From positions 12,530 to 76,529 of the forward strand of contig JAVKHQ010000007.1 in NCBI GenBank assembly GCA_031459875.1: a DNA stretch of 64,000 bases. The letters run 5' to 3'. Below, piece by piece: positions 5,742 through 23,730 of the stretch (its first letter is position 1; each line of letters opens with the position of its first letter). The translations under genes and the position numbers were made by a program. The notes beneath the pieces are model-generated. The model worked only from the letters and a program-made list of their open reading frames with translations. It was not told the origin of the DNA and did no database searches. Origin of the DNA: Candidatus Fervidifonticultor sextus. Lineage in GTDB: Bacteria > Sysuimicrobiota > Sysuimicrobiia > Sysuimicrobiales > Humicultoraceae.

Positions 5742-9131
<3,390 letters not shown>

Positions 9132-9138
9132 GCGTCCT

Positions 9139-11031
9139 GTGACGCTGCTGACCGACCACGACCTCTACCTGTTCAACGAGGGGACCCACTTCCGCCTCTA
9201 CGAGAAACTGGGGGCGCACCCGGTGCAGATGGAGGGCCGAGAGGGGACGTACTTCGCGGTGTGGGCGCCCAACGCTGAAGGTGTCTTCGTGATCGGTGAC
9301 TTCAACGGGTGGGACAGGACCGCGACCCCGCTCTACCCGCGGGCGACGTCGGGCATCTGGGAGGGCTTCATACCGGGGGTCGGCAGGGGGGCCCGCTACC
9401 AGTACCACGTCGTCTCGCGGTTTCATGGCTACCGCGCCGACAAGGCCGACCCGTTCGCGTTTTACGGGGAGTGTCCTCCGGCAACGTCCTCGATCGTCTG
9501 GGACCTGGACTACCGGTGGGGCGATCAGGGATGGATGGCACAGCGGGCGCAACGCAACGCCCTGGACGCGCCCATGGCCATCTACGAGGTGCACCTGGGC
9601 TCGTGGCGGCGGGTCCCGGAGGACGGCAACCGGCCCCTGACGTACCGCGAGCTGGCCCCGGCGCTGGCGGGCTACCTGCGGGAGATGGGCTTCACCCACG
9701 CGGAGTTCCTCCCGGTCATGGAGCACCCGTTCTACGGGTCGTGGGGCTATCAGGTCACCGGCTACTTCTCACCCACCGCACGGTACGGGACGCCCCAGGA
9801 CTTCATGTACCTGGTGGACTACCTGCACCAGCAGGGCTTCGGCGTCATCCTGGACTGGGTGCCTTCCCACTTCCCGCGCGACGAGCACGGGCTGGGGTAC
9901 TTCGACGGCACCCACCTGTACGAGCACGCCGACCCCCGCAAGGGCCTCCATCCCGACTGGGACAGCTTCATCTTCAACTACGGTCGGAACGAGGTGCGCA
10001 GCTTCCTGATCAGTGCCGCGCTGTTCTGGCTGGACCGCTACCACGTGGATGGTCTCCGCACCGACGCGGTGGCCTCGATGCTCTACCTGGACTACTCACG
10101 GCGAGAAGGGGAGTGGATCCCCAACGAGTTCGGCGGGCGGGAGAATCTGGAAGCCATCGCGCTGCTGCGCAGACTCAACGAGGAAGTCTACCGGCACCAT
10201 CCCGACGTCCAGACGATAGCCGAGGAGTCCACCTCCTGGCCCATGGTGTCCCGGCCGGCCTACGTGGGCGGTCTGGGGTTCGGCCTGAAGTGGGACATGG
10301 GCTGGATGCACGACACGTTGGCCTACATGGCGCGGGACCCGATCTACCGGCGGTATCACCACAACGAACTCACGTTTCGCATGCTCTACGCCTTCACCGA
10401 GAACTTCGTCCTGCCGCTGTCCCACGATGAGGTCGTCTATGGCAAGGGCTCGCTGCTGGCCAGAATGCCCGGGGCCGACTGGATGCCGTTCGCCAACCTG
10501 CGGCTGCTGTTCGGCTACATGTACGGCCAGCCCGGGAAGAAACTGCTGTTCATGGGCGGCGAGTTCGCCCAGGGCCGCGAGTGGAACCACGAGACGAGCC
10601 TGGACTGGCACCTGCTCGCCTACGCCCCTCACCAGGGGGTGGCGCGGTGGGTGGCCGACCTCAACCGGGTCTACCGGGAGGAGCCGGCCCTGCACGAGTG
10701 GGACTGCCGGCCCGAGGGGTTCGAGTGGATCGACGCCAACGACGCTGACCAGAGCGTCCTGACCTTCCTGCGGTGCGGGCGCTCCCCGGACGCGCTGATC
10801 CTGGTCGTCTGCCACTTCACGCCGGTGCCCCGCACCGGCTACCGCGTGGGAGTCCCACGCGGAGGGTTCTGGCGGGAGATCCTCAACAGCGACGCCCGTG
10901 AGTACGGCGGCAGCGGACAGGGCAATGCCGGCGGTGTCGAGGCGACGCCCATCCCCTGGCACGGCCGGTCCCACTCGCTGAACCTGACGATCCCGCCGCT
11001 GGGCGTGCTCTTCTTCAAGTGGGTGCCCTAG
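9139..11031 (+). CDS. glgB: 1,4-alpha-glucan branching enzyme
   Basis: [43 protein letters not shown]. Confidence 0.96.
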
Positions 11032-13321
11032 GTCCGACCCAGGTCAAGATTGTCCCCAGCAGGCGCGTGAACTCCTCCACGCTGCCGATCGCATACTTCG
11101 CGGCGGTCGGATAGGGACTCGGGCCCACCTTGATGGTGACGGCGTGGTCCGCCAGCGCCAGGAAGGCGTCTTCATCGGTACGATCGTCGCCCGCATACAC
11201 CACGGCGCACCGCACCGGCCAGTCCCCTCCCACCACGTGGTCCAGCAGCCACCGCGCGGCGTGCCCTTTGTGCCAGTCGACCGCCGGCCGGATTTCCAGG
11301 ACCATCTTGCCCCGCCGCAGCACGAGTTTCCCCGGCGGTGCCCGTCCGATCTCCCCCAGGACGATCTGGCGGACCGCCTCCACCCGATCGCGGTCCACGA
11401 GTCGGTAGTGGACGCTGGCCGTCAGACCCTTGTCCTCCACGATGGCGCCCCGGATGCCGCGCAGCCGCTCCCGCAGGCGCCGGCTGCACGCGGCGATGAG
11501 GACACGGACCTCGCCGGCCTCCTTGCGCTCGGCGGCCCAGCCGGGTCCGGCCAGTTCGAACCCGTGGTTGCCGACGTAGATGACGTCCTTGAGGCCGACG
11601 CGCTCCCGGAGGTCGGGCAGGGCCCGGCCGCTGATGACCGCCACCAGGCACTGCGGTCGGCGGGCCAGCCGCGCCAGCAGTGCGCGCGTCAGCGGAGGCA
11701 GGGCCGCCTGGGCGGGGCGGTCCACCAGCGGCGCCAGCGTCCCGTCGAAGTCCACCAGGAGGGCCAGGCGGTCACGGGAGGTGATCGACTCGCGCAGGGC
11801 CAGCAGGTCGGCGAAGACCGACCGGGTGGCGGTCCGCCCGGCCATCAGGTGCGCCGCCGCCCGGAAGTGCTGCTCCATCCAGTAGTAGATGTCGTGATGG
11901 CGCAGGTGGGCGCGCATCTGACGCATCCGCTCCGCTCGCTCGGCGGGCGGCATGTGCAGCGCCTGCAGCAGTGCGTTGGCCATGCGCTCGGCATCGTACG
12001 GATTGACCGCCACCGACCAGGGCGCTTCGTCGGCGGCGCCGGCCAGTTCGCTCAGCACCAGCACGCCCCGGCCGTCGACCTGACAGGCGACGAACTCCTT
12101 GGCCACCAAGTTCATCCCGTCCTGGAGGGACGTGACCAGGCAGACGTCGGCCATCCGGTACAGTGCCGCCATGCCCGCCGGCGCCAGCGGCGTGGGGATG
12201 TGGATGATCGGCTGCCAGTCTTCCGTCCCATAGGTAACGTTGATCCGCCGGATCTCCGCCCCGATTCGGTCCTGCAACTCGCGGTAAGCCCGAATCCGCG
12301 TGCGGCTCGGCGCGGACTTCTGGAGGAACGTGAAGCGACCACGGAGGCCCGGCGAGCGCTGGAAGAGCAACTCGATGGCGCGGAGGCGTTCGGGGATCCC
12401 CTTGGTGTAGTCGAGGCGGTCCACACCCACCCCGACGAAGCGATCCCCGAGACGAAAGCGGCGGCGCAGCCGCGCCATCCAGCGCTGGCAGGCCCGCGAG
12501 GCAGCCAGACCTTCCCACGCGTCGGCATCGATGCTGATCGGGTGCGCCTGCACCCGCGTATAGCGTCCCCCGTACTCGACGATCCCCTCCTCCCGGTCCA
12601 CCTCCGCACCCAGTTCGCGGGACGCGCAGTCGAGGAAGTTCTCCACGTGGCGCGGGAGGTGAAACGCCAGCAGGTCGTTGGCCAGCAGGCCTTCGATCAG
12701 GTCGGCGCTCTGGGGACAGATACGAAAGACGTCCCAGGCCGGCCAGGGGATGTGCCAGAAGTGCATCAGGAAGAGGTCGGGACGGGCTGCCCGCAGGTAG
12801 CGGGGGGTCAGGGCCAGGTGGTAGTCGTGGAGCCAGATCAGGGCGTCGGTGGAGACCGTCTCCAGCGTGGCCTCCGCAAAGCGTCGGTTCGTTATCTGGT
12901 ACCCGGTCCAGTAGCGCCCCGCGAACCGGGCCTTGTCCACCGCCAGGTGGAACAGCGGCCACAGCGACTGATTGGCGTAGCCGTGGTAGGACCGCTCCAC
13001 CTCGTCCCGACTCAGGCGCACGCGGCGCAGGGTGTAGCGGGGCGCCTCCGGCGGCACGCGGACGCACCCCCGTTCGTCCGTCACGGTGAAGTCCGCGTCT
13101 CCGCTCCCCCAGGCCACCCACACGCCGCCGGAGGCCTGGAGGACCGGGTCGAGCGCCGCGACCAGGCCTCCCGCCGGCCTCTCGACCTCGAGGCCCCCCT
13201 CGCCCTGTCGGTGGACGTAGGGTTCCCGGTTGCTGACGACGACCAGGTGCCGCGAGCCCAGCAGGTCGCGAACGGTCTGCTGGATCCTGGCGAGTTTCCC
13301 TGTCTGCACCTGTGTCAACAT
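11015..13321 (-). CDS. otsA: Trehalose-6-phosphate synthase/phosphatase fusion (OtsA-OtsB)
   Basis: GT20 motifs [33 protein letters not shown]; HAD domain [18 protein letters not shown]; 17-bp tail-to-tail overlap with glgB. Confidence 0.93.
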
Positions 13322-13492
13322 GGCTGCGCTCTGGCACGCCTGCGGGGTCGACGACGGGCTCGGATCAAGAGGCGTACCCCGATTATACCCCGCGGAATAG
13401 CACGGTCGCCAGAACGCGGTGGTCGGCTGGAGCCGGGGCTGCAGACCTTCCGGATCTACCACGGGTCCTGGTACTTTGTCGGTCACGCGCGC

Positions 13493-13522
13493 TTGACAGC
13501 CCGCCGCCGCGTCCAGTACAGT
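13493..13522 (+). promoter_or_regulatory. Sigma70-type promoter for gltB
   Basis: TTGACA (13493-13498), 18 nt, TACAGT (13517-13522); implies a leader of about 235 nt. Confidence 0.6.
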
Positions 13523-13676
13523 ACGTCCCAATAGCAGGCCGGGGGCCGCCCCGACGCGGCCTGGCGCGACCGGTCCTGCGTCAGCGAGGAAGTGCGCCTA
13601 GGGTTCCGCGGCCCAGACCACGGCCGGACCGGTCCAAGCGGCGCAGGCGGGAATCCACCCGCTACACCGTCGGGAT

Positions 13677-13739
13677 AGAAGCCCGAGGGGGAGGTTCCTC
13701 AAGTCCCGGAGACGGGAGGAGCCCACCCCTCGGGTTTCT
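13677..13739 (+). promoter_or_regulatory. Extended stem-loop in gltB leader (candidate cis-regulatory RNA or attenuator)
   Basis: 14-bp outer stem AGAAGCCCGAGGGG/CCCCTCGGGTTTCT, middle stem GGTTCC/GGAGCC, apical TCCCG-GAGA-CGGGA GNRA hairpin. Confidence 0.6.
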
Positions 13740-13763
13740 GCATTCAGCCGCGCCGGAGGTAGC

Positions 13764-16700
13764 ATGGCAGGGCCTGTCCCCTCCACCTGGGATCGGGAGC
13801 GAGACGCCTGCGGGGTCGGGTTCGTGGCCGACCGCCGCGGCCGGCGCAGCCATGCCATCCTGCGGCGGGCCCTGGCCGCGGTGGCGGCGATGAGCCATCG
13901 CGGCGCGGTGGCCGCCGACGCCAAGACCGGCGACGGCGCGGGGGTCCTGACGCACATCCCTTACACCCTGCTGCGCCGAGACCTGCGCTTGAGGACACCC
14001 AACGCCGACCTCGGCCTGGGGATGGTCTTCCTCCCGCAGGAGACCGACGCCGCGCGCCGGGCGTGGATGCTGATCGCCTCCACCCTGGAGGAGCATCACG
14101 TGCCGGTCCTCGGCTGGCGGCTGGTGCCGCTCGACCCGACGGCGCTGGGCGAGCATGCCCGCCGGACCATGCCGGAGATCACCCAGGTCGTCGTCGGCCG
14201 GCCCAAAGGGCACGACGATGAGGCCTTCGAGCGCACCCTCTACCGCGTGCGCCGCCTGATCGAGCGCCGGGCCGCGGCCGAAGGGCTGGGTGTCTACATC
14301 CCGTCCTTCTCGCACGCGACGGTGGTCTACAAGGGCCTCTTCGTCTCGCCGCAGTTGCCGAAGTTCTACCCCGACCTGGAGAACCCGGCATTCGAGACGG
14401 CCATCGCGGTCTTCCACCAGCGCTACAGCACCAACACCTTCCCGTCGTGGCCGCTGGCCCAGCCGTTCCGCCTGCTGGCGCACAACGGCGAGATCAACAC
14501 GCTCCAGGGCAACGTGACCTGGATGACCGCGCGCGAGGCGCTGCTGCGCTCCCCCCTGTGGCCCGAAGGCCTCGGCCGCGTGCTGCCGGTCATCCAGCCC
14601 GGCGGCAGCGATTCCGCCATGCTGGACAACGTGCTGGAACTGTTGACGCGCAGCGGCCGGGACCTCCTGCACGCCATGCTCATGCTGGTGCCCAGCGCCT
14701 GGGAAGGCATCCCCGACCTCCCCGAGGCGGTGCGCGCCTTCTTCGAGTTCCACGGGTGCCTGGTCGAGCCGTGGGACGGGCCGGCGGCGCTGGCCTTCTC
14801 CGACGGCCGGTACGCCGCGGCCGCGCTGGACCGCAACGGGCTGCGGCCGGCTCGGTACGTGATCACGCGGGACGGGCTGGTCGTGGTGGCCTCGGAGGCG
14901 GGCGTGCTGGACGTCCCGCCGGACCAGGTCGTGGAGAAGGGCCGGCTGGGACCCGGGCAGGTCCTCGCGGTCGACACCTTCAAGGGGATTGTGCTGCACG
15001 ACGAGGAGGTCAAGGGCCTGCTCGCCATGCGCAGGCCCTACGCCGACTGGCTGGAGCGCCACCTCATCAGGCTGGGCGCGTGCCGTGCCGCCGCGCCGCT
15101 GGAGGTCCCGCCCGATCTTGTGGCGCAGCAACGGGTCTTCGGCTTCACCGGCGAGGACCTCCACCGGGTGCTGCGGCCCATGGTCGAGGAGGGTAAGGAC
15201 CCGGTCTTCTCCATGGGCGACGACACGCCGCTCGCGGCGCTGACCGACCGGCCGCGCACGCTGGCGGACTACTTCCGGCAGCGGTTCGCTCAGGTGACCA
15301 ACCCGCCCATCGACCCGCTGCGCGAACGCCTGGTCATGTCGCTGGCCACCTACCTGGGGCCGCAGCGCAGCCTGCTGGAGGAGGATCCCCAACACGCCCG
15401 GCTCGTCCACCTGCCCTCGCCGGTCCTGACGGCCGAGATGGTGGAGGCGATCCGCGCCCACAGCCCGGCGCCGGTGGCGCGGCTGTCGGTGCTGTTTCCG
15501 GCCGCCTGCGGCCCCGGGGGGATGCGCGCCGCGCTGGAGGCGCTGCTCGATGCGGCCGCACAGGCGGTGCGCGGCGGCGCGGGCATCCTCATGCTGAGCG
15601 ATCGGGGCGCCACCCCGGAGCGGGCGCCGATCCCGATGCTGCTGGCCGTCTCGGCGGTCCACCACGGGCTGATCCGGGCGGGCCTGCGCGCGCGGTGCGG
15701 CCTGCTGGTCGAAGCCGGCGAGGCCAAGGACATCCACCAGATCGCGTGCCTGATCGGCTACGGTGCGAGCGGGGTCTATTCCTACCTGGTCCACCAGACC
15801 ATCGCCGCCGAGGCCGCCGACCCCCACGAGGCGCACCGGCGCATCGAGGTCTGGCGGCAGGCGGTCGAAGCCGGCCTCCTCAAGATCATGTCGAAGATGG
15901 GGATCAGCACCCTCTCGGCCTACCACGGCGCGCAGATCTTCGAGGCGGTCGGCCTGGCGCAGGACGTGATCGACCGCTACTTTCCGGGAACGCCGTCGCG
16001 CCTGGGCGGCGCGACCCTGGAGGACCTGGCCGCCACCGTGCTGGCCCGCCACGCCGGGGCCTACCGGACCAGCGGCCCGGTGCTGGAGACCGGATGGCTG
16101 CGCTTCCGCAAGGGCGGAGAATACCACGCGTTCAACCCGGAGGTCATCAAGGCCATCCATCGGATCGCCCGCGGCGAGGGATCGGGCAACGGGGACCCGC
16201 ACCGCCACCTCGCCGCGCTGGTCGAGGGCCGGCCGCCGACGGCGGTCCGCGATCTGCTGGAGTTCGTCCCCGGCGATCCCGTGCCCCTCGAAGAGGTCGA
16301 ACCCGCCTCACAGATCATCAGGCGCTTCGTCATCTCGGCGATGTCCCACGGCGCGCTCTCCCTGGAGGCCCACCAGACCCTGGCCATCGCCGCCAACCGG
16401 ATCGGCGCGCGGTCGAACTCCGGGGAAGGCGGCGAGGATCCTGCCCGCTATGCGCCCCGGCCGGATGGCGACTCGGCGAACAGCACCATCAAGCAGATCG
16501 CCTCGGCGCGCTTCGGGGTCACCCCCGCCTACGTCCGCTCGGCGGTGGAGCTCGAGATCAAGATGGCCCAGGGCAGCAAGCCGGGCGAGGGCGGCCAGCT
16601 CCCGGGCCACAAGGTCAGCGAGGAGATCGCGCGCATCCGGCGGTCCCAGCCCGGCATCACGCTGATCTCCCCGCCGCCCCACCACGACATCTACAGCATC

Positions 16701-18329
16701 GAGGATCTGGCCCAGTTGATCTACGACCTCAAGGCGGTCCACCCGCAGGCCCGGGTGGCGGTGAAGCTGGTCGCCGAGACCGGTGTCGGGACCATTGCGG
16801 CCGGGGTCGCCAAGGGGTACGCCGACACGATCCAGATCAGCGGGCTGGACGGCGGGACCGGCGCCTCGCCGCTGGATTCGATCAAGCACGCGGGACTGCC
16901 CTGGGAAATCGGCCTGGCCGAGACCCAGCGGGTGCTAATCGATAGCGGCCTGCGGGGCCGGGTGCGGCTGCGGGTGGACGGCGGCCTGAAGACCGCGCGG
17001 GACGTGGTCATCGCCGCGGCGCTGGGGGCCGATGAGTTCGGCTTCGGCAGCGCTGTGGTGACCGCGCTGGGGTGCGTGATGGCCCGCCAGTGCCACCTCA
17101 ACACCTGCCCGGTCGGCATCGCGACCCAGCGCGAGGACCTGCGCCGCAAGTTTCCGGGCACGCCGGAGCACGTGATCAACTTCCTGGTCGGGCTGGCAGA
17201 GCAGGTCCGCAGGCTGCTCGCGGACCTGGGCGTGCGCCGCCTGGACGAGATCATCGGCCGGGCCGACCGGCTGCGTCCCAGGATGCCCGGACGGTCCGGG
17301 CCCGAAAGGCCAAGGCCGGCAGCCTCCGGGGAACGGGAGCGCCCACGCCTTGATGTCGCGGCACTGCTCGCGAGTTATCCTCCGCCGCACGACGACCGGC
17401 CGCGCCGTTGTCTGGCCGAGCGCAACGCGCGCCCCGACGAGCCCTATGACGAGACCCACCTGATGCCGCTGCTGCCGGCGATCGAAGCCGGCCAGCCCGT
17501 GGAACTCCACCTGCCGCTACGCAACGTGCACCGCGCGGTCGCTTCCAGGCTGGCCGGGGCGATCGCGTCCCGATGGGGGGACGCCGGGCTCCCGGAGGGG
17601 TCGGTGCGCCTCCACTTTACCGGTGCCGCCGGCCAGTCGTTCGGCGCCTTCCTCCTCCCCGGCATGCACCTGCACCTGGTCGGCGAGGCCAACGACTACG
17701 TGGGCAAGAGCATGGCCGGCGGCGAGATCGTCCTGACTCCGCCGGCGCCGCTGCGGGCCGAGAGCCACCGCCACGTGATCGCGGGCAACACGCTCCTCTA
17801 CGGCGCGACCGGGGGTCGGTTCTTCGCCGCCGGCCGGGTCGGCGAACGCTTCGCCGTGCGCAACAGCGGCGCGGTGGCGGTCGTCGAGGGCGCGGGCGAC
17901 CACGCCTGCGAGTACATGACCGGCGGGGTCGTGGTGGTCCTGGGCGAGACCGGCCGGAACTTCGGCGCGGGCATGACGGGCGGCGAAGCGTTCGTCTACG
18001 ACGACGCCGGGACCTTCCCCCACCGGTACAACACGCAGCTCGTGACGATCACCCGGCTGACCCCCGACGATGCCGACCGTCTGCGCGACCTCGTGGCGGC
18101 GCACCACCGGGCGACCGGCAGCCGCCGCGCGCGGATGCTGCTCGGCAACTGGGAAGCCCACACGATGAAGTTCTGGAAGGTTGCCCCCAAGGCCCCGGAC
18201 AAGCCGGCGCCGGGCCCCGGGACCTCCGGCCGGGCGCGCGAGGGGGCGATGCCGGCGGGGCCCGCGACTGAACCTGCCGGCCTCGCCGTGATCCGGCACA
18301 GAGGGCTATCGCCCCAAGCGTGGGCCTAG
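13764..18329 (+). CDS. gltB: Glutamate synthase large subunit
   Basis: DACGVGF N-terminal nucleophile Cys, HQRYSTNT, AHNGEINT, KMAQGSKPGEGGQLPG, CVMARQCHLNTCPVG 3Fe-4S motif, C-terminal GXGXG repeats. Confidence 0.97.
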   Translation: MAGPVPSTWDRERDACGVGFVADRRGRRSHAILRRALAAVAAMSHRGAVAADAKTGDGAGVLTHIPYTLLRRDLRLRTPNADLGLGMVFLPQETDAARRAWMLIASTLEEHHVPVLGWRLVPLDPTALGEHARRTMPEITQVVVGRPKGHDDEAFERTLYRVRRLIERRAAAEGLGVYIPSFSHATVVYKGLFVSPQLPKFYPDLENPAFETAIAVFHQRYSTNTFPSWPLAQPFRLLAHNGEINTLQGNVTWMTAREALLRSPLWPEGLGRVLPVIQPGGSDSAMLDNVLELLTRSGRDLLHAMLMLVPSAWEGIPDLPEAVRAFFEFHGCLVEPWDGPAALAFSDGRYAAAALDRNGLRPARYVITRDGLVVVASEAGVLDVPPDQVVEKGRLGPGQVLAVDTFKGIVLHDEEVKGLLAMRRPYADWLERHLIRLGACRAAAPLEVPPDLVAQQRVFGFTGEDLHRVLRPMVEEGKDPVFSMGDDTPLAALTDRPRTLADYFRQRFAQVTNPPIDPLRERLVMSLATYLGPQRSLLEEDPQHARLVHLPSPVLTAEMVEAIRAHSPAPVARLSVLFPAACGPGGMRAALEALLDAAAQAVRGGAGILMLSDRGATPERAPIPMLLAVSAVHHGLIRAGLRARCGLLVEAGEAKDIHQIACLIGYGASGVYSYLVHQTIAAEAADPHEAHRRIEVWRQAVEAGLLKIMSKMGISTLSAYHGAQIFEAVGLAQDVIDRYFPGTPSRLGGATLEDLAATVLARHAGAYRTSGPVLETGWLRFRKGGEYHAFNPEVIKAIHRIARGEGSGNGDPHRHLAALVEGRPPTAVRDLLEFVPGDPVPLEEVEPASQIIRRFVISAMSHGALSLEAHQTLAIAANRIGARSNSGEGGEDPARYAPRPDGDSANSTIKQIASARFGVTPAYVRSAVELEIKMAQGSKPGEGGQLPGHKVSEEIARIRRSQPGITLISPPPHHDIYSIEDLAQLIYDLKAVHPQARVAVKLVAETGVGTIAAGVAKGYADTIQISGLDGGTGASPLDSIKHAGLPWEIGLAETQRVLIDSGLRGRVRLRVDGGLKTARDVVIAAALGADEFGFGSAVVTALGCVMARQCHLNTCPVGIATQREDLRRKFPGTPEHVINFLVGLAEQVRRLLADLGVRRLDEIIGRADRLRPRMPGRSGPERPRPAASGERERPRLDVAALLASYPPPHDDRPRRCLAERNARPDEPYDETHLMPLLPAIEAGQPVELHLPLRNVHRAVASRLAGAIASRWGDAGLPEGSVRLHFTGAAGQSFGAFLLPGMHLHLVGEANDYVGKSMAGGEIVLTPPAPLRAESHRHVIAGNTLLYGATGGRFFAAGRVGERFAVRNSGAVAVVEGAGDHACEYMTGGVVVVLGETGRNFGAGMTGGEAFVYDDAGTFPHRYNTQLVTITRLTPDDADRLRDLVAAHHRATGSRRARMLLGNWEAHTMKFWKVAPKAPDKPAPGPGTSGRAREGAMPAGPATEPAGLAVIRHRGLSPQAWA

Positions 18330-19202: not shown

Positions 19203-19700
19203 TTACGGGCGCGACCCGGCAAGCCGCCGCGCCTCGATCGCCCGGTGCACCCGCGCCATCACCGGCACGCCGCCTGCGATGAGGACCACCTCGCTCGCCA
19301 GCAGGGGCGGGAAGAGCACGCCGAAGGGAACCCGCAGGATCACCGAGAGCATCAGGCTCACGGCCGCGGCGATCACCAGCGCGTAGGCCAGAGCGCCGAT
19401 CCACGGAGCGCGCCGGCCGCCGAGCACGCACAGGGCGGCACCGACCAGATTGGCCAGCGGCATGAAGCCCAGTTCCCAGGGACCCACCTGGGGACTGGTC
19501 AGATTGCTGAGGAAGTTGCCGACGACGAAAGCGGCCACCAGGTGCGGCCGCCAGATCACCAGCGACTTGAGCGCCTCCGGCAGGCGGAACTGCACCGGGC
19601 CGTAGCTGATGGGGCCGAAGGCGATCGTCAGCGCCGCATAGGCCGCGGCGACCACACAGACCTCGGCCAGCGCCCGCAGCCCCCCGGCCCTGGCGGTCAC
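19203..19700 (-). CDS. queT: QueT-family queuosine precursor transporter
   Basis: AAAYAALT...ISYGPVQFRLPEAL...GNFLSNL pattern; 4 nt downstream of queF. Confidence 0.82.
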   Translation of the reverse strand: MTARAGGLRALAEVCVVAAAYAALTIAFGPISYGPVQFRLPEALKSLVIWRPHLVAAFVVGNFLSNLTSPQVGPWELGFMPLANLVGAALCVLGGRRAPWIGALAYALVIAAAVSLMLSVILRVPFGVLFPPLLASEVVLIAGGVPVMARVHRAIEARRLAGSRP

Positions 19701-19704
19701 AAAC

Positions 19705-20178
19705 CTACTCCCGTCGGCCTGCCCCTGCGCCCGCCTCTCCGGCAGGGCTCCCGGCGCCGCCGTCGGGCCAGCGGACCGTGACGGTCGTGTGGACGCCGCC
19801 CCGGATGTTGTAGTCCAGCACGAGTTCCATCCATTTAGGGTCGGTGGCGCCGACCAGGTCCAGGAGGATCCGGTTGGCGGCGTGTTCCTGATAGATGCCG
19901 ACGTTGCGGTAGGAGTGCAGGTAGTATTTGAGCGACTTGAGCTCGAGCACGCGCTCGCGGGGGACGTACCGGACGGTGAGCCGGCCGAAGTCCGGCAGCC
20001 CCGACCACGGGCAGACGGCGGTGAACTCTTCGGTGGAAATCTCCACCACGGCGTCGCTGCCTGGATACTCGTAGGGAAAGGTCTCGAGGCGCGCGGCATT
20101 GATCCGGTCGTAGCCCTCGATGTCCCACCGCTGCTCGCCGACGGCGGCGCCGGCAGCCTGGCTCCCGGAGCGGCTCAT
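19705..20178 (-). CDS. queF: NADPH-dependent preQ0 reductase, type I (short) QueF
   Basis: EFTAVCPWSGLPDFG catalytic Cys/Asp, QueF motif ELKSLKYYL, RGG. Confidence 0.9.
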   Translation of the reverse strand: MSRSGSQAAGAAVGEQRWDIEGYDRINAARLETFPYEYPGSDAVVEISTEEFTAVCPWSGLPDFGRLTVRYVPRERVLELKSLKYYLHSYRNVGIYQEHAANRILLDLVGATDPKWMELVLDYNIRGGVHTTVTVRWPDGGAGSPAGEAGAGAGRRE

Positions 20179-23655: not shown

Positions 23656-23730
23656 GGGGACGTAGCTCAGCGGGAGAGCACCTGCTTTGCACGCAGGGGG
23701 TCGGGGGTTCGAATCCCCTCGTCTCCACCA
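23656..23730 (+). tRNA. tRNA-Ala(TGC)
   Basis: Acceptor GGGGACG/CGTCTCC with G3:U70, D arm GCTC/GAGC, anticodon arm CCTGC-TTTGCAC-GCAGG, GGTTCGAATC T-loop, encoded CCA; extended -10 TGcTATAAT at 23623-23631. Confidence 0.97.

Follow-up and report, generated by a model that had tools for sequence, protein, structure and literature searches.

The leader of gltB in the 64,000-nucleotide stretch of DNA analysed here (the window) very probably contains, at positions 13586-13700, a (p)ppGpp-sensing riboswitch of ykkC subtype 2a that would switch the gene on by transcription antitermination. The assignment is based on sequence, conservation, covariation, two mutually exclusive folds, gene contexts and the presence of RelA/SpoT in the host; the ligand, its contacts, termination and kinetic control are carried over from published homologues. 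In published assays, two of 30 predicted 2a aptamers bound nothing and three bound very poorly, and models are described as confusing 2a with 2b.

The gene under control and the leader elements that flank the aptamer are:

13493..13522, + strand: sigma-70-type promoter TTGACA-18-TACAGT (-35 box 13493-13498, -10 box 13517-13522; 10/12 matches)
13530, + strand: predicted transcription start, an A 8 nt past the -10 box, from homologous promoters
13534..13579, + strand: accessory 5′ hairpin, lineage-limited and outside the aptamer, from comparison of close relatives
13755..13759, + strand: Shine-Dalgarno sequence GGAGG
13764..18329, + strand: gltB, glutamate synthase large subunit, 1521 aa (NF008730, 1729.8 bits, cut-off 1047)

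The host belongs to the phylum Ca. Sysuimicrobiota, previously CSP1-3, and the nearest named GltB (96% identity) is from Ca. Fervidifonticultor. The gene is unaccompanied, the genome having no gltD above the TIGR01317 cut-off, and many of the nearest outside relatives of the protein are cyanobacterial. GltB may therefore be a ferredoxin-using enzyme.

The near-consensus promoter reported in the initial annotation is present and is the sole promoter-like site within 1.4 kb (12800-14200; shuffled sequences gave 0.0 ± 0.2). For 52 of 98 homologous aptamers the same pattern was found on the upstream side, at a distance of at most 170 nt. An A is found 8 nt past the -10 box in 50 of these 52 promoters, compared with 10 of 40 strict promoter matches genome-wide, although the first count is not one of independent cases because the homologues are related. 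By this comparison the gltB transcript probably starts at A13530 rather than at 13523. In Firmicutes, falling GTP leaves A-starting promoters active; by analogy, the gltB promoter and the riboswitch may therefore act in the same direction.

The leader as a whole (13523-13763) has a predicted folding energy of -131.9 kcal/mol (z -3.96), equalled by none of 200 shuffles. Its first hairpin, 13534-13579, includes an inner stem as well as a loop of six conserved nucleotides, with two-sided changes in 3 of 14 pairs among eight hand-picked close relatives, the only ones to keep it. It was rejected as part of the sensor since it is missing in most homologues. Among the other homologues the distance from promoter to aptamer varies between about 4 and about 108 nt.

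At gathering cut-offs, Rfam finds only tRNA in the whole window and misses the leader. With the threshold relaxed to E ≤ 10 there are seven matches, among them a full-length match of RF00442 (ykkC/guanidine-I) at 13587-13692 (56.4 bits, E 1.6e-9, cut-off 63). The other six are to miRNA families (E 0.03-8.9) and were discarded as chance matches to long GC-rich hairpins. The glnA, T-box, FMN, lysine, c-di-AMP and SAM families are all absent from the list, in agreement with the initial annotation. Its suggestion that the RNA could be novel is contradicted, however, by the ykkC-family match, whose diagnostic nucleotides and neighbouring genes are those of published ppGpp riboswitches. Known ligand classes of the ykkC fold are guanidine, ppGpp (2a), PRPP (2b) and nucleoside diphosphates (2c), with 2d an orphan (PMC7266159).

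Diagnostic positions were mapped by the T. mathranii numbering (PMC6031431) and the binder features of PMC9881157. The aptamer then reads as follows:

13586..13700, + strand: ykkC subtype-2a ((p)ppGpp-type) aptamer, from the RF00442 match, pair map and covariation
13586-13591/13695-13700, + strand: P0, 6 bp
13591-13592, + strand: A5 (13591) and unpaired G6 (13592)
13593-13645, + strand: P1, 53 nt, with G48 at 13638 and C49 at 13639
13646-13663, + strand: P2
13664-13667, + strand: ACAC, with the ligand-pairing C75 at 13665
13667-13674/13682-13689, + strand: P3
13690-13694, + strand: single-stranded P3-P0 linker GGAGG, 5 nt

A small hairpin that had been noted earlier (13647-13662) is present and is P2 of this aptamer. 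The P1-P3 scaffold of the ykkC family is complete, including its conserved bulges in P1 and a P3 loop rich in purines. The linker starts with G, whereas the 2a consensus, (A)NARG, is purine-rich, 4-5 nt long and starts with A. Within P3, G13669 and G13687 stand opposite each other as a mismatch, at a place where a G-C pair is found in most published members; the position is paired in 21 of 100 homologous loci.

The fold is conserved and covaries. In an alignment of 27 aptamers, three rows of which are slightly off register at the 3′ end, 96.5% of cells are paired and two-sided changes occur in 11 of 36 pairs. None of 500 shuffles scored as high, a result that is not a probability because the sequences are related. 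P0 is paired in 97.5% of cells and has a two-sided change in one pair. A custom model built from this alignment (R1) found 101 places in 71 of the 94 phylum genomes, and in 44 of the 54 of good quality; order-level and phylum-level genome sets are identical. One place is cut by a contig end and was left out, giving 100 loci for analysis. The Rfam model found 98 places in 70 of the genomes, passing its cut-off in 16 of the 94, and all 98 fall within the 101 when compared by eye. The genomes searched thus yielded neither guanidine-type nor PRPP-type aptamers. In five genomes with the next-best GltB loci, R1 matched twice, once to an aptamer of this same kind and once to a weak EamA-linked ykkC RNA. 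The latter (L214:1501-1611), ahead of an EamA-like gene in a Chloroflexota genome, is probably of orphan subtype 2d.

Most marks of the class are nearly invariant among the 100 loci: A5G6 is retained in 98, G48 with a pyrimidine at position 49 in 98 and ACACC in 96, and the guanidine-type GAGAG is found in none. The four-way P0-P3 fold and all the listed binding features are shared with the ppGpp riboswitches of Sherlock, Sudarsan and Breaker 2018 (PMC6003355) and Jagodnik et al. 2023 (PMC9881157). That class also has gltB/ilv/cimA contexts and a tandem Leu T-box, as found here, and an overlapping terminator, of which this leader has a predicted counterpart.

The other half of the switch follows the aptamer directly:

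13681..13742, + strand: alternative (ligand-free) hairpin, a predicted intrinsic terminator from fold prediction, missed by a strict terminator scan

Its 5′ arm consists of the 3′ strands of P3 and P0 and its 3′ arm is 13716-13734. The middle tier pairs the 3′ strand of P0 with 13716-13723, a near copy of the 5′ strand of P0. The long stem as a whole (13677-13739, -49.3 kcal/mol) is the three-tier structure picked out in the initial annotation. The 14-bp outer stem was recovered, the outermost five pairs joining P3 loop purines to the U-tract; in the minimum-energy fold, however, the middle stem has 8 bp and the cap 3 bp, and the GAGA tetraloop appears only as an alternative cap. The stem and the aptamer exclude each other, since both need 13677-13700, where the P3 loop and the 3′ strands of P3 and P0 lie. 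The two hairpins singled out at first are real, as P2 and the predicted competing terminator, but the sensing core of P0, P1 and P3 had gone unrecognised. The long hairpin is single-copy in the genome: blastn-short of the host's own sequence gave no other match beyond 14 nt (E 0.47), which answers the earlier concern that it might be a dispersed repeat.

A competing hairpin was detected in 84 of 95 parsed loci, and at least 4 U fall within the next 8 nt in 73 of the 84, compared with 2.8% of random 8-mers. The count includes some mis-picks (seven picks exceed 100 nt), and most of the 11 loci with none have a U-rich tail by eye. Positions 82 and 94 and their terminator partner form the triplets G-C-G (47), A-U-A (26), A-U-G (9) and G-U-A (2), a co-change at position 94 that gives weak support because the script required pairing and the change largely tracks the gltB/ilvB split. 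By prediction the terminator fold (-89.4 kcal/mol) is favoured by about 23 kcal/mol over the fold constrained to the aptamer (-66.4 kcal/mol). OFF would therefore be the default state, and switching would work only kinetically.

By analogy with characterised members, the following sequence of events is proposed. The aptamer, P0 to P3, would be finished once polymerase reached 13700, ahead of synthesis of the 3′ arm of the terminator, and the small cap hairpin after P0 may extend the time for ligand binding. With (p)ppGpp present, the guanine of the ligand would pair with C13665 and its phosphates would contact A13591/G13592, G13638/C13667 and G13693/G13694. Binding would lock P0 and P3 and block the terminator, so that polymerase would read into gltB. 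Without ligand, 13716-13723 would displace P0 and 13725-13734 would unzip P3, the more stable hairpin would form and transcription would end at about 13740. The device would be a kinetic ON switch that allows gltB transcription in response to ppGpp, a starvation alarm molecule. Cotranscriptional probing of another member indicated that ppGpp stabilises a labile closing helix against the terminator (PMC10687018).

The same aptamer could instead act on a leaky terminator or pause site, with a protein factor (NusA, Rho) or translation contributing part of the control. The U-tract, 13735-13742, is weak, with 4 U in 8, and fails the strict terminator scan, so the hairpin may be leaky or be aided by NusA. 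The Shine-Dalgarno sequence is predicted to be paired in both folds, and in one relative of the same genus (L141) no U-tract follows the competing hairpin, which spans GGAG and the sole plausible GTG start. On the other side, the predicted accessibility of GGAGG is the same in the two folds and 15 nt separate it from the end of the stem, the distance given in the initial annotation. U-rich tails are retained across the phylum regardless of the distance to the start codon. An interrupted U-tract is also functional in the D. hafniense ilvE switch, the layout of which matches this leader and which shows ppGpp-dependent read-through in vitro. This reading is therefore considered unlikely. A specific translational OFF switch, in which the freed 3′ arm would pair with GGAGG, was tried and found unsupported, accessibility being equally low in both folds and the spacer not conserved.

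PRPP riboswitches (2b; PMC5912903 and PMC6031431) share P0, the pyrimidine at 49, ACACC, a similar 3′ tail and an antitermination ON mechanism with the RNA described here. They require a flipped-out G96 that pairs with C75, and precede purine genes; both features are absent here. The single change G96A is reported to shift specificity about 40,000-fold towards ppGpp. In the phylum P3 pairs without interruption, and C81-G95 is found in 99 of 100 loci. In the alignment, the continuous register pairs 90.7% of cells compared with 72.7% in a shifted register. The second 3′ position of P3 is A in 96 of 100 loci and G in four; two of these four can pair the G with U80, one has an extra U ahead of it and the last (L148), where it faces G80, is ambiguous.

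The distance from the distal P3 stem to P0 gives the same answer. It is 10 nt in the window aptamer and in 94 of 100 loci, 9 nt in five and 11 nt, through an extra U, in one. By eye, it is 10 nt in the ppGpp aptamers of T. oceani, D. hafniense and Clostridium BL8 and 9 or 10 nt in that of P. fermentans; it is 11 nt, with G96, in two readable PRPP sensors and in a purine-permease-linked control (L210). The latter is one of eight Firmicutes control loci, whose downstream genes were assigned by eye from translations. Five of the others are guanidine-type with A49 (L205-L207, L209, L212), one is a natA-like 2a aptamer and one is unclassified.

A PRPP sensor, or a ykkC variant that binds some other nucleotide, such as pGpp or a nucleoside diphosphate, is accordingly improbable, despite a 3′ tail that is PRPP-like in length and sequence, a paralogue tail identical to that of H. 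modesticaldum purB, and a published glutamate-synthase 2a member (C93/H60) that scores highest on the PRPP model. The gene contexts also argue against it. Of the 100 loci, 55 precede gltB, 38 ilvB and 5 cimA, and two are at contig edges. Among the 98 resolved, none has a purine or guanidine gene downstream, and none has the NUDIX/HAD hydrolase or EamA/TauE genes by whose presence subtypes 2c and 2d are set apart (PMC7266159).

The initial annotation had suggested an unannotated riboswitch for nitrogen or glutamate status. What stands is a conserved, covarying, riboswitch-type leader of gltB that Rfam misses; the ligand was probably wrong. The position ahead of gltB in more than half of the loci and the score below the Rfam cut-off would suit a new class sensing glutamine, glutamate or 2-oxoglutarate, but the same aptamer precedes ilvB and cimA in 43 of 100 loci, every known (p)ppGpp contact position is kept and one glutamate-synthase-linked 2a RNA is reported to bind ppGpp, which makes such a class very improbable. 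A guanidine-I riboswitch, as the Rfam label would have it, is scarcely credible: RF00442 is the sole good Rfam match, passes its cut-off in some of the phylum's genomes and shares the P1-P3 scaffold, but the pyrimidine at position 49 (here C13639 in place of A) excludes that class, an extra C78 and P0 are present, the S-turn with G89/G96 and any downstream guanidine efflux, degradation or related genes are lacking, and the guanidine-type Firmicutes controls have GAGAG or AAGAG and no P0.

The host genome has two copies of the (p)ppGpp-type aptamer. The second, at G000:C34:111394-111512 on the - strand (L111, L114), carries its own short terminator, which is followed by a T-box with a CUC (Leu) specifier and the genes ilvB-ilvC-ilvN-leuA-leuC-leuD-cimA-leuB. 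The host T-box scores 83.8 bits, below the cut-off of 93, which three relatives exceed; Rfam confirms a T-box in five loci. A T-box antiterminator motif follows all 38 of the ilvB copies. The same loose pattern also occurs in 1 of 55 gltB and 1 of 5 cimA loci, where the matches are probably due to chance. In the 12 of 42 loci with a readable specifier, it is CUC each time. The gltB, ilvB and cimA contexts of the phylum are those published for 2a. In PMC6003355, the ppGpp class is reported to accompany branched-chain amino acid genes, glutamate synthase and tandem leucine T-boxes, organisms with the switch on glutamate synthase usually have copies on branched-chain genes too, and the aptamer with a Leu T-box is presented as an AND gate.

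Full-length RelA/SpoT is encoded by the host, and CodY was not found in its 96%-complete genome. A proposal that CodY replaced ppGpp riboswitches in many organisms (PMC6003355) fits a host of this kind. There is also a DksA/TraR zinc finger match, which is uninformative on direct control of polymerase because B. subtilis matches the same family.

The closest published relatives in sequence are the 2a candidates C86, C88 and C89, which are near-identical in style to the gltB copies of the phylum and are listed among the glutamate synthase rows of Table S1 of PMC9881157 as metagenome entries with no host and no test entries. The sequence variant itself has therefore already been seen, without its host. 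In P3 the nearest likeness is to the clostridial natA aptamers C94 and C101, which likewise have a continuous helix, no residue 96 and a linker of 5 nt between P3 and P0. Each of them binds (p)ppGpp; PMC10687018 worked on the strain that C101 comes from, and the switch it describes acts by antitermination. They differ in having ACGAG as linker, a short P1 and a preference for pppGpp; the gltB leader has GGAGG instead, and its 53-nt P1 falls within a length group reported to bind ppGpp and pppGpp alike. Most published 2a members have a bulged P3 and a 4-nt linker, in contrast to the continuous helix, G-G mismatch and 5-nt RNAGG linker found here.

The hosts also differ. All named species among the 105 2a candidates of Table S1 are Firmicutes (PMC9881157). 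A search of literature largely outside subscription journals gave no paper on a riboswitch in CSP1-3 and none on a ppGpp riboswitch in an Armatimonad, and the titles listed for ppGpp riboswitches include no such report. The main text of the phylum description mentions neither riboswitch, ppGpp nor stringent.

The ppGpp class, its association with glutamate synthase and its tandem arrangement with a T-box are already published (PMC6003355 and PMC9881157), and the mechanism is therefore unsurprising. The novelty is that the switch occurs across a non-Firmicutes phylum, where it seems not to have been described before, in a host that has RelA/SpoT and in which CodY was not found. The value lies in range and annotation: the switch occurs in most genomes of an uncultured phylum, which is the likely home of the hostless sequences in the published 2a list, and suggests Firmicutes-like stringent control without CodY. 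Rfam misses the aptamers of this phylum or labels them as guanidine sensors. Some 100 natural versions in which P3 is continuous, probably including a number from thermophiles, would be useful for tests of ppGpp versus PRPP specificity and as sensor parts.

A broader interpretation is put forward only tentatively. Ca. Sysuimicrobiota could hold their own branch of (p)ppGpp riboswitches, with a PRPP-like tail and a cleanly deleted G96, in which ppGpp sensing possibly arose separately from a PRPP scaffold. This branch, acting alongside Leu T-boxes and promoters that start with A, could be the chief means by which the stringent response acts on the synthesis of glutamate and branched-chain amino acids in a phylum that is outside Firmicutes and has no CodY, with evolution of the switch visible in a few deviant copies. 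In L141, from the genus of the window, the hairpin covers the GTG with which gltB has to begin, an apparent change from a transcriptional to a translational platform; its P3 carries an additional U as well as a G79-C pair. L201 and L202, from one genus and ahead of cimA, keep P0, P3 and the terminator and differ at positions of the pocket and of docking (ACUC in place of ACAC, A replaced by C two bases ahead of G48, an altered P1 bulge); they may be decaying or sensing another ligand. P2 is about 50 nt longer in L015 and L024, and L024, which is also without A5G6 and ACAC, may be inactive.

Elsewhere in the window, a bifunctional trehalose-6-phosphate synthase/phosphatase gene (11015-13321, - strand) is divergent from gltB. 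Open reading frames in 5742-11031 (+ strand) are, as we take it from their translations, trehalose synthase/maltokinase and glycogen branching enzyme. Downstream, queF (preQ1 synthase) lies within 19203-20178 (- strand) and is followed in the same interval by what is presumably a QueT-like membrane protein; no preQ1 riboswitch was found near queF at Rfam cut-offs in a search of the whole window. A tRNA gene with anticodon TGC is located at 23656-23727 (+ strand).
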